Shown: positions 10,900-44,434 of the stretch, piece by piece
Layout of the letters: each line of letters starts with the position of its first letter
How positions within the stretch are numbered: the stretch's first letter is position 1
Source of the DNA: Candidatus Nomurabacteria bacterium RIFCSPHIGHO2_01_FULL_37_25
GTDB taxonomy: Bacteria; Patescibacteriota; Minisyncoccia; Phycocordibacterales; UBA9973
Direction of reading: 5' to 3'
NCBI GenBank assembly: GCA_001786765.1
Contig: MFTH01000003.1
Location: 1 to 44,509, forward strand
Length of the DNA stretch: 44,509 bases
Translations under genes and position numbers: made by a program
Notes under the pieces: model-generated
Seen by the model: only the letters and a program-made list of their open reading frames with translations
Told to the model about the DNA's origin: nothing
Database searches by the model: none

Positions 10900-12179
10900 T
10901 GGATGAAAAAATAATAAAAATAGAAAATTCTTTTTCGCAAAATTTTAGCGTTGGATGGTTTTTAGCATGGCGGGACATAAAGCATGCGAACAAGTGGACG
11001 ACATCTCTTATTGTTTTCGTGATGACTTTAACTTTTCTGAATCTGATAGTTGTTTCTGGTATCTTGATAGGTTTAATCCAAGGTTCCGAAGATGCCGCCA
11101 AGAGATATGCCATCGGTGATGTCGTCATATCTCCTTTTTTGAATCGTTCAGCCATCGAACAGACTCCAAGGGTGGAAGAAATTATCAAAACTATTTCAGG
11201 ATATGAAAAACACACTGTTCGGTATTCTGGTTCAGCGACTGTTTCTTCAAATTATAGAGAAACGATAAAGCCGGGAGACAAGCCTGATAACATAGGAGCA
11301 ATACTAATGGGTATTGACCCGGCGCAAGAAGAAGAATTTTCTGGTATTTCAAAATTTGTTGTTCGTGGTCAATATTTACAAAACACTGACCAAGACAGCG
11401 TCCTAATTGGCAAGAATCTCTTGTATGAATTCACACCGATTGAAGCTCCCGGTTTCCAAACTTTAAAAAATGTAACCATAGGACAGAGAGTAGAAATAAC
11501 TGTCGGTGGTTATGCTAAAGAGTATTTTATTAAAGGCATAATTATGAGTAAGGTAGATGATTTTGATACTTCGATAGTAGCGCTCGCGAGCGAAGTGCGG
11601 AAGCTCACCGGCAGGACGGATTTGAATGCTGGAACAATAGCCATAAAATTGATGCCAGAAGCTGATCCTATTTTAGCGCGAGATTTTCTTTTGAAATCCG
11701 GAGTCGGCGCGTACGCTCGAGTCCAGACAGCGGAAGAAGCTTTTCCAAAGTTTTTGAAAGATATCAAGGCGACTTTCGGTATTCTCGGCACCGCTATCTC
11801 TAGCATTGGTCTTGTCGTAGCTTCGATTACGATATTTATCGTTATCTTTGTGAATGCTATCACTAGTCGCAGGTATATAGGTATTTTGAAAGGTATTGGC
11901 ATAAATCAAAAAGCGATACTTTATTCTTATATGTATCAAGCTTGCATTTACGCTTCCTTTGGAATTATTTTCGGAATGATATTGATTTTCTTTTTTATCA
12001 AACCTTATTTTTACGCTCATCCGATAAACTTTCCTTTTTCTGACGGTATATTGGTTGCTACGATGCCTTCTTCACTTTTACGAGCTGGAGTTTTACTCAT
12101 CACGACAATAATCGCGGGATATATTCCAGCGCGCATTGTTATTAAACAAAATACCTTAAGCGCTATTTTAGGAAGATAA
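10899..12179 (+). CDS. ABC transporter permease (MacB/FtsX family)
   Basis: TM1, large extracellular domain, YIGILKGIG motif, three C-terminal TMs. Confidence 0.9.
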   Translation: MDEKIIKIENSFSQNFSVGWFLAWRDIKHANKWTTSLIVFVMTLTFLNLIVVSGILIGLIQGSEDAAKRYAIGDVVISPFLNRSAIEQTPRVEEIIKTISGYEKHTVRYSGSATVSSNYRETIKPGDKPDNIGAILMGIDPAQEEEFSGISKFVVRGQYLQNTDQDSVLIGKNLLYEFTPIEAPGFQTLKNVTIGQRVEITVGGYAKEYFIKGIIMSKVDDFDTSIVALASEVRKLTGRTDLNAGTIAIKLMPEADPILARDFLLKSGVGAYARVQTAEEAFPKFLKDIKATFGILGTAISSIGLVVASITIFIVIFVNAITSRRYIGILKGIGINQKAILYSYMYQACIYASFGIIFGMILIFFFIKPYFYAHPINFPFSDGILVATMPSSLLRAGVLLITTIIAGYIPARIVIKQNTLSAILGR

Positions 12180-17277: not shown

Positions 17278-17395
17278 TCCCGTTAGAAGTCGCGATCGCG
17301 TTTAATTAATATAAATATGAAAGAAGATATAAATAAAATTAATAGCATAATTTATCAGATGCGAAATACGATCGCGATCTGCTTCTAAACGGGAT
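17277..17395. mobile_element. CCCGTTAGA/TCTAACGGG miniature element, copy upstream of glgA
   Basis: TIR ATCCCGTTAGAAG...CTTCTAAACGGGAT overlaps the glgA ATG; internal uORF at 17317..17388. Confidence 0.85.
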
Positions 17396-18907: not shown

Positions 18908-19028
18908 ATCCCGTTAGAAGCCACGATCACAATTTATAAAATAAAAATTATGAAAATAAATTTAGATAATATTACTAATTTAACTTATCAGATGCAAAAC
19001 ATGATTGCGATCTGCTTCTAAACGGGAT
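18908..19028. mobile_element. CCCGTTAGA/TCTAACGGG miniature element, copy upstream of GH57
   Basis: Same TIRs; internal uORF at 18950..19021, extendable to ATG 18905. Confidence 0.85.
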
Positions 19029-41221: not shown

Positions 41222-41304
41222 ATCCCGTTAGAAGCCGCGGTCGCAATAATTATAAGGTTGAATTAAGTAGTCACGGTATGACCGCGACCTGCTTCTAACG
41301 GGAT
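41222..41304. mobile_element. CCCGTTAGA/TCTAACGGG miniature element at the leuS start
   Basis: TIR ATCCCGTTAGAAG/CTTCTAACGGGAT; ATGAA direct repeat at 41218-41222 and 41303-41307. Confidence 0.9.
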
Positions 41305-44300
41305 GAAAGAATACGACCATAAAAAATTAGAGAAGAAATGGCAATCTATTTGGGAAAAAAAGAAAATATATCAAGCTCAAAACTCTTTTAAAAAACCCAA
41401 GTATTATAGTCTAATCGAGTTTCCTTATCCTTCTGGTGATGGGCTTCATGTCGGTCATCCGCGACCTTATATTGGGATGGATGTTATTTCTAGAAAAAGA
41501 AGGATGGAAGGTTTTAATGTCCTTTATCCTATAGGTTGGGATGCTTTTGGTTTGCCGACGGAAAATTATGCTATCAAGACAGGCAAGGACCCGCGAGTTG
41601 TCACTAAAGAAAATACTGATACTTTTCGTGGGCAAATAAAATCACTTGGCATTTCTTTTGATTGGTCGCGGGAGATAAATACGACTGACCCAAAATATTA
41701 CAAATGGACGCAGTGGATATTCTTGCAATTTTTAAAAAAAGGTTTGGCGTATAAAGCCAAAATGACGATCAATTGGTGTCCGAAATGTAAAATTGGTCTT
41801 GCTAATGAAGAGGTTGTCAATAATTCTTGCGAGCGTTGCGGAACGACAGTGGAGAAACGCAAAAAAGAACAATGGATGCTCGCCATTACTAAATACGCAG
41901 ATAGATTAGATAAAGATTTAGATGATGTAGATTATCTTCCTCAAATCAAACTAGGACAAAGGAATTGGATAGGACGGAGCGAAGGGGCAGAGATAGAATT
42001 TAAGATTACTGTGAAACAAAAAAATAATTTTGGCGCCTTCGCCCTCGGAGGCAAAGGACAGGGAACCCACGACGCTCAAAATCATTCTTTTGTTTCGCAG
42101 TCTGTAAAAGTTTTCACCACTCGACCTGATACTATTTTTGGAGTCACATTTATTGCTTTAGCGCCTGAAATCGCGAAAAAACTCACAGGTAAAGATTTTG
42201 GTATTAAGTCAGATGTTGATAGGGAAAATAAACAAAAAATAGGAGTGGATACCGGGCTTGAAGCAAAAAATCCCGCAAATGGCGAAATGATACCTGTTTT
42301 TGCGGTCAATTATGTATCAGCGGAATATGGCACCGGAGCTATTATGGGTGTGCCAGCGCATGACGAGAGAGATTTTGAATTTGCCAAGAAATATAATTTA
42401 CCGATTAAGGAAGTTATTGAACCGGTATTTGTTGATACTGAAGGTATTGACGCGGTGCAAAAAGATAAACCTATGGTAGAACGAGAAGCAATATTGGCTA
42501 TTGTTAAACATTGGTCGGAAGATAAATATCTGGGTCTAAAATGGAAAAAAGTTAATTGGGGAACTTTTATTAGTGGTGGAGTAGAAAAAGGTCAGACATC
42601 TGAACAAGCGGCTAGAGCCGAAATAGAAGAGGAAACAGGCTATTTTAATTTGAAATTAATTAAAACTCTTGGTCGTTATCATAGTAAATTTTTTCATACA
42701 CCAAAAAATGAAAATCGTTTTGGTCATTTTAACACTTTCTATTTTGAGTTAGAAAATGGGAAACAAAATGAAATATCTAAAGAAGAAAAAGAGAAACACG
42801 AAATATTGTGGCTTAGTCCCAAAGAGATAGAGAAATTTTTAACAACAGAAAGTTTGCGTTATAGGTGGAATATTTTACAGGGTTATAAAAAAATATATAC
42901 TGGCAGAGGAATTCTCGTCAATTCAGGTAAATTCTCTGGTATGGATTCGGAGAAAGCAAAGAAAGAAATTATAAAATTTGTTGGCGGGAAAGAAAAAACA
43001 ACTTTCAAACTTCGCGATTGGATTTTTTCAAGGCAAAGGTACTGGGGAGAACCGATACCGGTGATTTATTGTGAAAATTGCCGAGTCGGAAGCCTTGCTT
43101 CCGACAAACGGAAGCAAGGCTTCCGACTGGAAAATGCTGGCTGGATTCCAGTGCCGGAAAAAGATTTACCAGTAGAACTTCCAAAAGTTAAAAATTATCA
43201 GCCGACGGATAGCGGAGAATCACCGCTTGCGAATATTCCAAAATGGGTGAATGTAAAATGTCCGCAGTGTAAAGGTAAAGCTAAAAGAGAAACAGACACA
43301 ATGCCGAATTGGGCAGGTTCTAGCTGGTATTATCTTCGTTATACTGATGATAAAAACAAAAAAGAATTCGCTTCACAGAAAAATCTACGCTATTGGTTAG
43401 GGGTTGACCCCGTTAGAGAAAGGTCGCCCCAAGGTGACCGAAGCACTGCCTCTGGCAGGGCGTTCTCTAACGAGGTTGACCCCGTTAGAGAAAGGTCGCC
43501 CCAAGGTGACCGAAGCACTGCCTCTGGCAGGGCGTTCTCTAACGGGGTGGATTGGTACAATGGGGGAAATGAGCATACGACACTGCATCTTCTATATTCT
43601 CGTTTTTGGCATAAATTTCTTTTTGATTTAAAACTAGTCCCTACTAATGAGCCATATATGAAAAGAACTTCGCACGGACTTATTTTAGCCGAAGGCGGGG
43701 AAAAAATGTCTAAATCCAAGGGCAATGTTATTAATCCGAATGATATTGTGAAAATATATGGAGCAGATACGCTTAGATTGTATGAAATGTTTATGGGTCC
43801 GTTTGATCAGGCGATAGCTTGGAGCGAAGAAGCAATCATTGGCCCGAGGAGATTTTTGGAAAAAGTTTGGAGAATAGGAATGTCAAAGTGTCTCTTTGAC
43901 AAAAAATCACCAATGTCAAAGAGACACTTTGACATTACGAGACTTCTTCATAAAACCATCAAAAAAGTATCCGAAGATATAGAAGAAATGCGTTTTAATA
44001 CAGCAATTTCCGCGCTGATGATACTTGCAACAGAAATGGAAAAAGCTGAAAAGCTAACACCTGAAAGCTATAAGCTATTCCTGCAAATTCTTGCGCCATT
44101 TGCGCCACACATTGCAGAAGAGCTTTGGCAGAATCTGGCTCCCCAAGGTCTCGCCTTTGGCTTTCTTAAAGCGAGACCTTCTTCCTCCAGTATTCATTCC
44201 TCAGCTTGGCCGAAGTGGGATGAGAATTTAATAAAAGATGAAGAAATAAAAATTATAATTCAGATAAATGGAAAAGTTAGAACGGAGATTGTTATACAGG

Positions 44301-44434
44301 CTGATGATAAAGAAGAAGATGTAAAGAAGCAAGCTCTTGCCAATGAAGTTGTTTTGAGACACACAGAAGGCAAAGAAATCAAAAAGACTATTTATGTAAA
44401 AGATAGACTTATTAACATTGTTTTATCAAATTAA
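41303..44434 (+). CDS. leuS: Leucine--tRNA ligase with a Nudix domain insert and several in-frame palindromic inserts
   Basis: FPYPSG, LHVGH, GWDAFGLP, FTTRPDT, RQRYWGEPIP, KMSKS. Confidence 0.97.
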   Translation: MKEYDHKKLEKKWQSIWEKKKIYQAQNSFKKPKYYSLIEFPYPSGDGLHVGHPRPYIGMDVISRKRRMEGFNVLYPIGWDAFGLPTENYAIKTGKDPRVVTKENTDTFRGQIKSLGISFDWSREINTTDPKYYKWTQWIFLQFLKKGLAYKAKMTINWCPKCKIGLANEEVVNNSCERCGTTVEKRKKEQWMLAITKYADRLDKDLDDVDYLPQIKLGQRNWIGRSEGAEIEFKITVKQKNNFGAFALGGKGQGTHDAQNHSFVSQSVKVFTTRPDTIFGVTFIALAPEIAKKLTGKDFGIKSDVDRENKQKIGVDTGLEAKNPANGEMIPVFAVNYVSAEYGTGAIMGVPAHDERDFEFAKKYNLPIKEVIEPVFVDTEGIDAVQKDKPMVEREAILAIVKHWSEDKYLGLKWKKVNWGTFISGGVEKGQTSEQAARAEIEEETGYFNLKLIKTLGRYHSKFFHTPKNENRFGHFNTFYFELENGKQNEISKEEKEKHEILWLSPKEIEKFLTTESLRYRWNILQGYKKIYTGRGILVNSGKFSGMDSEKAKKEIIKFVGGKEKTTFKLRDWIFSRQRYWGEPIPVIYCENCRVGSLASDKRKQGFRLENAGWIPVPEKDLPVELPKVKNYQPTDSGESPLANIPKWVNVKCPQCKGKAKRETDTMPNWAGSSWYYLRYTDDKNKKEFASQKNLRYWLGVDPVRERSPQGDRSTASGRAFSNEVDPVRERSPQGDRSTASGRAFSNGVDWYNGGNEHTTLHLLYSRFWHKFLFDLKLVPTNEPYMKRTSHGLILAEGGEKMSKSKGNVINPNDIVKIYGADTLRLYEMFMGPFDQAIAWSEEAIIGPRRFLEKVWRIGMSKCLFDKKSPMSKRHFDITRLLHKTIKKVSEDIEEMRFNTAISALMILATEMEKAEKLTPESYKLFLQILAPFAPHIAEELWQNLAPQGLAFGFLKARPSSSSIHSSAWPKWDENLIKDEEIKIIIQINGKVRTEIVIQADDKEEDVKKQALANEVVLRHTEGKEIKKTIYVKDRLINIVLSN
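42008..42101. mobile_element. 94-bp in-frame MITE-like insert in leuS
   Basis: Long terminal stem ACTGTGAAACAAAA/TTTTGTTTCGCAGT with inner hairpins. Confidence 0.8.
43084..43128. repeat. 45-bp in-frame hairpin insert in leuS
   Basis: Perfect 20-bp arms AGTCGGAAGCCTTGCTTCCG with an ACAAA loop. Confidence 0.9.
43405..43548. mobile_element. Tandem 2 x 72-bp CCCGTTAGA/TCTAACGGG element in frame in leuS
   Basis: Encodes (DPVRERSPQGDRSTASGRAFSNE/GV)x2; the two units differ by very few bases. Confidence 0.92.
43879..43936. repeat. 58-bp in-frame inverted repeat in leuS
   Basis: Perfect 23-bp arms AATGTCAAAGTGTCTCTTTGACA with a 12-nt loop; the 22-mer also occurs at 38333-38354. Confidence 0.9.
44145..44180. 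repeat. 36-bp in-frame hairpin insert in leuS
   Basis: AAGGTCTCGC...GCGAGACCTT; encodes QGLAFGFLKARP. Confidence 0.8.

Follow-up and report, generated by a model that had tools for sequence, protein, structure and literature searches.

The 44,509-bp contig MFTH01000003.1 of Candidatus Nomurabacteria bacterium RIFCSPHIGHO2_01_FULL_37_25, hereafter the window, contains a leucyl-tRNA synthetase (LeuRS) gene, leuS, whose reading frame is lengthened by a 144-bp tandem insert. Very probably, these 144 bp are two head-to-tail copies of a 67-bp non-coding mobile palindrome resembling a miniature inverted-repeat transposable element (MITE), lodged in frame and translated in the only leuS gene of the organism. 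The window is one entire contig of a 726-kb, 17-contig genome (G000) with 36% G+C and an estimated completeness of 98%, which LeuRS homologs place among the Paceibacteria/Nomurabacteria of the candidate phyla radiation (CPR). The leuS product has the Pfam domains tRNA-synt_1, LeuRS editing domain, NUDIX and Anticodon_1, and it matches the Thermus thermophilus LeuRS of structure 1H3N with E=8e-179. As it is the sole LeuRS-grade match in the genome, the insert-bearing protein must work.

A preliminary description of this DNA had reported two 67-bp units, each with a 5-bp spacer, that keep the frame and add 48 residues between LG and VDWY, and both the sequence and the open reading frame (ORF) bear this out. 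The protein reads ...RYWLG-VDPVRERSPQGDRSTASGRAFSNE-VDPVRERSPQGDRSTASGRAFSNG-VDWYNGGNEH, or twice 24 residues, with position 43403 a first codon position, the 144 bp making up 48 codons, and the insert lying at codon 701. The spacer is better described as a flanking target repeat, and the division into 67 plus 5 bp agrees with boundaries at 43403-43551; the repeat does lie at 43405-43548, where it had been placed, with those coordinates offset by about 2-3 bases. Tandem Repeats Finder (43402-43548, period 72, 2.0 copies, 98% matches, score 287) and a repeat-family search (copies at 43402-43473 and 43474-43545, 99% identity) both recover the tandem, whose two 72-bp units differ solely in an A at 43473 versus a G at 43545.

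Each unit folds as had been proposed, with a 13-bp terminal stem enclosing a GGTCGCC/GGTGACC and a CTGCC/GGCAG hairpin. Folded as DNA, unit 1 reaches -21.4 kcal/mol (z -6.1) and unit 2 -25.6 kcal/mol (z -7.2), and 0 of 200 shuffles folded as well; the RNA adopts the same structure, at -35.2 kcal/mol for one unit and -82.6 kcal/mol for the pair. The cargo between the ends, 61% G+C and stop-free in both orientations, recurs in the genome only at C6:950-1017 (85% identity), a sibling on a start codon that has 68 nt between its ends and would break a reading frame. Hairpin 2 differs between cargo copies by paired changes (CTGCC/GGCAG versus CTCCCG/CGGGAG), and we infer that conservation would act on the DNA hairpin and not on the peptide. 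A scan of the genome collection for the unit cargo found it in three other CPR genomes only, all copies being intergenic, and the exact peptide PVRERSPQGDRSTASGRAFSNG, for which a search had been suggested, was not found in other proteins in that scan. Plasmids searched with the 144 bp gave no match, nor did JGI metagenome contigs in an exact search for the left flank plus unit start.

The mobile nature of the units is apparent from the family to which they belong, present in at least 35 copies in the genome under a strict end pattern, besides which copies with small end indels exist. The end scan of the genome yielded 35 elements of 46-276 nt with the ends CCCGTTAGA...TCTAACGGG, that is, xCCCGTTAGA...TCTAACGGGx'. 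Both leuS units carry this inverted repeat as C-CCCGTTAGAGAA...TTCTCTAACG(A/G)G-G, their ends matching the genome's own family consensus perfectly and being common to 33 other copies, so that the kinship with intergenic copies claimed in the preliminary description holds over a 10-13-bp terminal inverted repeat. At the very tips, x and x' form a complementary pair in 35/35 elements, as T:A in 31 and as C:G in 4 (the two leuS units and the copies at L4 and dnaG). Exact 4-bp direct repeats flank 22/35 copies and 5-bp repeats 16/35, direct repeats of 5-6 bp occur in three copies beyond those 22, and the repeated sequences include TGAA, TGGA/TCCA, TGCA, TTCA, CTCA and TTGA. The spacer-free ATG of a 70-1043-aa ORF adjoins 28/35 copies, against a chance expectation of 0.21. 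Interiors fall into several subfamilies, with cargo ranging from 30 nt to a 252-nt nuclease gene.

Beyond this genome, 16 of 41 related genomes contain the exact-end pattern, five of them in bursts of 15-27 copies, and a reversed-pattern control gave 0 occurrences; in genome and homolog scans the family ends are specific to Paceibacteria-type genomes. Judged from the DNA, the spread of copies, their target repeats and the conservation of their ends are the behavior of a mobile family. The leuS insert has the features by which MITEs are recognized: it is small (67 nt per unit), non-coding and multi-copy, with 10-13-bp inverted ends and target duplications.

The choice of site appears to follow a rule. 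The outer pair covaries with the base beside the 4-bp target, T:A accompanying A|TGNA and C:G accompanying G|T(T/G)GA, so that the junction always rebuilds the same 5-mer. By default the family targets start codons, A|TGNA, where the last base of the element would restore the start codon, and the C:G-ended variant, of which the leuS copy is one, lands on G|T(T/G)GA. Two models were weighed, a 6-bp duplication with bare CCCG...CGGG ends and a 4-bp duplication with x...x' ends; the data fit a duplication of 4-5 bp with a complementary outer pair. The leuS copies lie off the start codon at an internal GTG-GAT, in the same codon phase as the start-codon copies, and the original landing would have been on the Val-Asp of the conserved VDWYNGGNEH strand. 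In the empty relative L053 the site reads TTG GGG GTG GAT, and the commonest empty state is ACN CCN GTG GAT (TPVD), which indicates that the target was G|TGGA|T, like the family's A|TGGA|T start-codon target and in the same phase.

The leuS site was probably chosen because GTG-GAT resembles the family target, and the insert survives there because 72 bp are 24 codons and the GC-rich cargo is free of in-phase stops. Copies on start codons have the same reading, the duplicated ATG NAx continuing into CCC GTT AGA (Pro-Val-Arg). Very few copies outside leuS combine freedom from stops with a length divisible by three; the only intragenic copies in the genome are of this kind, and coding inserts account for 1 locus of about 34. 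Such a stop-free, in-phase pattern is the signature of a selection filter, under which coding insertions persist only where the frame is kept and the site is tolerant. The parallel drawn earlier with the in-frame elements of Rickettsia is upheld to the extent that the insert is stop-free, a multiple of three and located in the one leuS of a genome that is 98% complete. Coordinates are collected in Table 1.

Table 1. Positions of the tandem insert, its host gene and related elements (window coordinates unless a contig of G000 is named)
Feature	Position	Strand	Remarks
Family member, 79 nt, with different cargo	41224..41302	+	abuts leuS start codon; ATGAA on both sides
leuS ORF	41303..44434	+	1043 aa; sole LeuRS gene of the genome; host of the insert
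Left flanking repeat GTTGA	43403..43407	+	codons GTT GA-, Val-Asp
Unit 1, 67-bp palindromic element C-CCCGTTAGAGAA...TTCTCTAACGAG	43408..43474	+	A at 43473 weakens the last stem base pair
Middle repeat GTTGA	43475..43479	+	between units; same as left repeat
Unit 2, 67-bp palindromic element C-CCCGTTAGAGAA...TTCTCTAACGGG	43480..43546	+	ends perfect
Right flanking repeat GTGGA	43547..43551	+	Val-Asp of conserved VDWYNGG; one synonymous base off left repeat
Additional hairpin inserts in leuS	42020-42100, 43082-43138, 43877-43942, 44135-44191		in frame
Members of the 'GTCGCGATC' subfamily	17279-17393, 18911-19028; C8:36324-36441, C15:46125-46241 (G000)		

Whether the tandem exists in nature and whether it reaches the protein are separate questions, both bearing on the reading that the 144 bp are an assembly error or are removed before or during translation, as an intron, an intein or by ribosomal bypass. 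To this reading we give almost no credence. The junction between units 1 and 2 is exact in 61-nt Logan unitigs over 43443-43503 in runs X1, X2 and X4, and in 102-nt unitigs over 43443-43544 in runs X3 and X5; the unitigs are built from raw reads, and the five runs, metagenomes of groundwater and soil, come from at least 3 studies. Exact junction unitigs in five public runs mean that the tandem is not an assembly artefact, and that part of the reading is largely refuted, although one public assembly does have a single unit. A read-depth check, as had been recommended, gave a depth of 48 for the collapsed unit versus about 19 for the flanks in X1. In X2 the junction has a depth of 13 and the flank 22, values that hint at a mixed population. 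Removal from the message or protein might be favored by the very stable RNA hairpins of the pair, but the peptide has no Pfam match to an intein or any other domain, and an Rfam scan of the insert gave only sub-threshold matches on the hairpins resembling miRNA precursors. At 67 nt, the element is also far under the size of any known self-splicing intron. Intragenic copies are all stop-free and multiples of three, as expected if they are translated, and translation of the leuS element as a 24-residue loop, tolerated by the enzyme just before a catalytic-domain strand, is what the open frame suggests.

The second unit arose recently. A public ENA contig (P0001/L009, from 4 samples) encodes the same protein with a single unit and is identical elsewhere, being either an allele with one copy or the product of repeat collapse during assembly. 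Together with the 71/72 identity of the units, this supports a recent tandem duplication at the DNA level, as the preliminary description had proposed from the near-identity of the repeats (1/72 bases differ). For the origin of the second unit we rate two routes about equal: a further insertion, into the target sequence that the first copy had recreated, and slippage between the 9-bp direct repeats GGGGTTGAC and GGGGTGGAT. Slippage in replication, or unequal recombination between the same repeats, would need no element-encoded activity, and we hold it to have slightly less than an even chance. The two 9-bp repeats border the element in the single-unit allele, whose 5-bp flanks GTTGA and GTGGA differ at one base, the only other genomic copy of the cargo is just 85% identical, and so strong a hairpin should favor the process. 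The middle repeat reproduces the left one exactly, as both models predict, and does not discriminate between them.

Against slippage stand other tandems of the family in metagenomes. A scan of JGI contigs for GTNGAC-CCCGTTAGAR returned at least 120 matching contigs, 80 of which were parsed as loci L054-L133. Among the matches listed, 42 of 56 complete elements are bracketed by two identical 5-bp GTNGA copies, whose variable base changes in step on the left and the right, which marks a true duplication. Also among the matches listed are another two-unit homo-tandem, L110, and two loci, L070 and L107, where two different family members stand back to back with one flanking repeat in common. Since each insertion recreates its target, re-insertion beside a resident copy is expected, and the hetero-tandems demonstrate that it does occur in the family. 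Read-through copies of the form VDPVR...SNGVD are found, among the matches listed, in a NAD-dependent epimerase (L064) and a 5'-nucleotidase (L115), as well as in the N-terminal tail of an endonuclease III (L055).

Homologs of the enzyme show what occupies the loop elsewhere. Among 114 CPR LeuRS homologs that cover the region, the loop is empty in 52 as xPVD and in 2 as LGVD; 21 have a 7-residue insert, LGxDPxxGGV[D/N], 5 a family element, and 34 other, mostly palindrome-derived inserts of 3-28 residues. Such a hypervariable loop argues for tolerance. In L040 (protein P0014) the site reads GTGGA-C-CCCGTTAGAAGTCGTGCTCGCGAC...GCGGCTACTTCTAACGGG-GTGGA, with family ends, an exact flanking repeat and another cargo of 69 nt; the P0073 site resembles it, and L041 (P0041) combines family ends with a 48-nt cargo, as in start-codon copies of other genomes. 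The proposal that the ends are conserved and the interior variable is thus corroborated at one and the same leuS codon in other organisms.

The recurrence of family elements at this codon could also have a single cause, namely one ancient insertion, inherited vertically in an LG...VD lineage of CPR LeuRS, with its interior repeatedly swapped, by gene conversion from copies elsewhere in the genome or through excision followed by re-insertion, or else reduced to a stub of 15 nt, and with only the duplication being recent. We regard this as rather unlikely on balance. All family-bearing alleles and the 21 alleles with 7-residue inserts have LG upstream, with empty sites mostly TPVD, and an approximately unbiased (AU) test did not reject holding the five family-bearing LeuRS as one clade (p-AU 0.65). 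The 7-residue inserts of L051 and L052 are 15-nt mini-palindromes, C-CCCGCC-GGN-GGCGGG-G, that keep the outermost CCCCG/CGGGG and the Val-Asp/Val-Asn duplication; by conjecture from this pattern, xDPxxGG inserts may be collapsed remnants or excision footprints. On the other hand, none of the same-genus genomes read at the codon has the window's unit, and most are empty TPVD. A quick LeuRS tree on 249 flanking columns, poorly resolved as it is, implies about 39 site-state changes, and its well-supported branches require the family state to have arisen at least twice. The perfect flanking repeat of L040 suggests a young insertion, and the leuS ends match the genome's own consensus without a mismatch. 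A claim that the tree shows independent insertions at the codon was withdrawn in view of the AU result, which allows a single origin. The insert at the codon may nonetheless be old, with the duplication alone recent.

A loop in this position might conceivably have been put to use. Alignment to T. thermophilus LeuRS puts the insert after W-M-P531 and before V532-D-Q-Y-I-G-G-V-E-H, directly ahead of a conserved strand in the second half of the catalytic domain, and the translation of the insert is rich in Arg, Ser, Pro and Gly, with tryptic peptides SPQGDR, STASGR, AFSNEVDPVR and AFSNGVDWYNGGNEHTTLHLLYSR. Four Arg per 24-residue unit, a position at the edge of the catalytic domain and the presence of some insert in about half of the 114 homologs would be compatible with co-option for tRNA or RNA binding or for regulation under positive selection. 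We consider this improbable, as the occupants of the loop are unrelated in sequence and length (3 to 48 residues), close relatives lack any insert, copy number varies between assemblies and differences across copies keep the DNA hairpin and not the peptide. Structural modeling, which had been suggested, gave models of low confidence at the site. A full-length model from a 30-sequence alignment has a mean pLDDT of 60 and a model of the C-terminal half from 90 sequences one of 69; in both, the catalytic half and the insert are of low confidence, and the insert is unstructured. Given the poor values around the site, the models were not used to claim surface exposure.

Several points weigh against our preferred reading of the insert as a translated mobile palindrome, or against parts of it. 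The single-unit contig could have lost a copy through repeat collapse in assembly, and the depths only hint at a mixed population. Both AlphaFold models are poor at the site (insert pLDDT about 25-43) and leave exposure of the loop unsupported. The LeuRS tree cannot separate repeated landings from one old insertion. All runs found are of DNA, and translation is deduced from the open frame and the uniqueness of the gene. The outer flanking repeats differ at one base, GTTGA versus GTGGA. As to the proposed means of movement, GIY-YIG proteins are not known as transposases. Published Ssn nucleases are not reported to move their repeats (PMC11893778).

The candidate for that movement is encoded within the family. 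Two 276-bp members (C5:2321-2596 and C8:59359-59634), which agree at 255 positions of a 302-column alignment, 12-bp flanks included, carry between the family ends an 84-aa GIY-YIG ORF that matches PF01541 (E=3e-18, residues 3-69 of 84), has only weak matches in NCBIfam and stops at a TAA within the right end. By analogy, this nuclease is most likely what moves the gene-less elements, including that in leuS, in trans. Ssn nucleases are small single-domain GIY-YIG proteins whose gene lies between dispersed hairpin repeats, numbering tens to hundreds (Chenal et al. 2025, PMC11893778); they cut single-stranded DNA near their own repeat, and ssnA homologs have the repeat on both sides in 42% (PMC11893778). 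The 84-aa ORF is alike in lying between the two family ends at two loci. The Ssn repeats (NTS/SRM) modulate transformation and, unlike the present family, are not reported to transpose with target duplications or to lie in coding sequence (PMC11893778).

Tentatively, and with somewhat less than even confidence, we propose that the leuS insert is a side effect of very small transposons that belong to a class not yet described and are present in CPR as well as other uncultured bacteria. In its autonomous form such a transposon would measure about 276 bp, with the 84-aa GIY-YIG nuclease as its sole product; its ends would pair with the base beside a 4-bp target and rebuild it (T:A at A|TGNA start codons, C:G at G|TNGA), tandems would pile up by recreation of the target, and loops would be written into essential proteins at in-phase Val/Met-Asp codons wherever the cargo is stop-free. 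Full-text literature searches on Patescibacteria/CPR, covering MITEs and palindromes inserted in frame, and others on GIY-YIG elements located at start codons, returned nothing relevant.

Comparison with known repeats helps to delimit the family. Rickettsia palindromic elements (RPEs) are described as short palindromic repeats of a reduced genome that sit in frame in unrelated, often essential genes (Ogata et al. 2000, 2002, as reviewed in PMC10969869) and are read as extra peptide segments, thought to lie in tolerant surface regions, with several families per genome (PMC10969869). The leuS insert is likewise palindromic, in frame, stop-free and in a gene whose protein accommodates it, here the sole leuS. 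It differs in occurring in CPR/Patescibacteria and not in Alphaproteobacteria, in unit length (67 nt versus roughly 100-150), in having clear terminal inverted repeats with 4-5-bp flanking duplications, and in belonging to a family that defaults to start codons, makes coding inserts only exceptionally and has a candidate nuclease gene between its ends. RPEs have no known mobilizing enzyme. The leuS element works like an RPE and would not belong to the RPE families, homology not being expected.

Bacterial MITEs such as ERIC/IRU, Correia/NEMIS and those of cyanobacteria make occasional in-frame insertions (PMC10969869). With these the family has in common its small size, terminal inverted repeats, target-site duplication, many copies, hairpin potential and occasional ORF read-through fusions. 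Classical MITEs derive from insertion sequences with DDE transposases, whereas the only coding relative here is the 276-bp element with its 84-aa GIY-YIG nuclease; moreover, the target is tied to translation starts and the outermost pair covaries with the flanking base of the target. REP sequences with REP-associated tyrosine transposase (RAYT) genes, described by Nunvar and colleagues (2010) and Ton-Hoang and colleagues (2012), reportedly have a transposase gene bracketed by hairpin repeats and many gene-less repeats elsewhere. One nuclease or transposase gene between its hairpin repeats, plus gene-less copies, is the shared arrangement. RAYTs differ in being HUH enzymes related to IS200/IS605, and REPs in being extragenic, with no known target duplication or translation.

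If the proposed class exists, such transposons would be a steady source of the many palindrome-derived insertions in CPR LeuRS and in other enzymes. Protein-coding palindromes, thought to be largely specific to Rickettsia, would now be seen in a second, unrelated lineage with reduced genomes. Because the present elements have well-defined ends, duplicated target sites, a rule for the target and a candidate nuclease, experiments could address how they come to lie in essential genes of a host that survives. The inserts would also account in part for the unusually variable length of CPR aminoacyl-tRNA synthetases, some insert at this loop being present in about half of the 114 homologs, and the natural 0-, 1- and 2-copy alleles would suit tests of how well a class I synthetase copes with 24-48 extra residues beside a catalytic strand.

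Other copies of the family in G000 and in metagenomes merit mention. The C:G copy at C8:32886-33002 is 117 nt long, stop-free and situated between ATG AAC and the GTG GAA GCA AAA start of an L4-like ORF, to which it could add a 41-residue N-terminal extension on the evidence of the frame. The C:G copy at C16:62771-62847, of 77 nt, precedes a DnaG-like ORF whose only in-frame ATG (ATGAAAATCTCTAACGGG) lies inside the element. Copies of the 'GTCGCGATC' subfamily have a conserved 23-codon micro-ORF (e.g., MKEDINKINSIIYQMRNTIAICF*) that ends at the right-end TAA, 4-5 nt before the host ATG, an arrangement that suggests translational coupling of the micro-ORF to the host gene. The two window copies of this subfamily have TCTAAACGGG, with one extra A, and for that reason fall outside the strict pattern. 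In L110 (Ga0180007_10004299, about 11160-11250), the GTTGAC-flanked tandem is followed by TTGACA, 16 nt and TATAAT, ahead of a DUF433-like ORF, and many right flanks in metagenomes read GTTGACA; from these motifs, the GTTGAC branch may land on, or create, promoter -35 boxes.

LeuRS itself has further peculiarities. A NUDIX domain (PF00293, E=1.5e-12; window about 42548-42835, residues 416-511) is inserted after the editing domain, as in most listed Paceibacteria LeuRS homologs, others having DUF559/MTES_1575 endonuclease-like or alpha/beta-hydrolase domains instead. The alignment with 1H3N jumps from chain residue 581 to residue 637 (window about 43694-43705, LeuRS residues 798-801), and the leucine-specific domain before KMSKS appears, on this alignment, to be missing from the CPR LeuRS studied. 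Four further in-frame hairpin inserts are found in leuS: KNNFGAFALGGKGQGTHDAQNHSF, RVGSLASDKRKQGFRLENA, MSKCLFDKKSPMSKRHFDI and APQGLAFGFLKARPSSS. Three of the four have 16-mers in common with other places in the genome, and two form perfect stems of 20-22 bp (-42 and -35.5 kcal/mol). With five such inserts in the gene, about 135 of the 1043 residues of the product are palindrome-derived. Peptide motifs such as SPQPSPERRGG, LSFGEGLGGV/PFGEDIGGV, APQGRTLGSLKVRPFPA and MSKxxFD are found repeatedly, at more than one LeuRS loop and in more than one organism (P0010, P0011, P0008 and others), a recurrence indicating that several other translated palindrome families circulate in CPR genomes.

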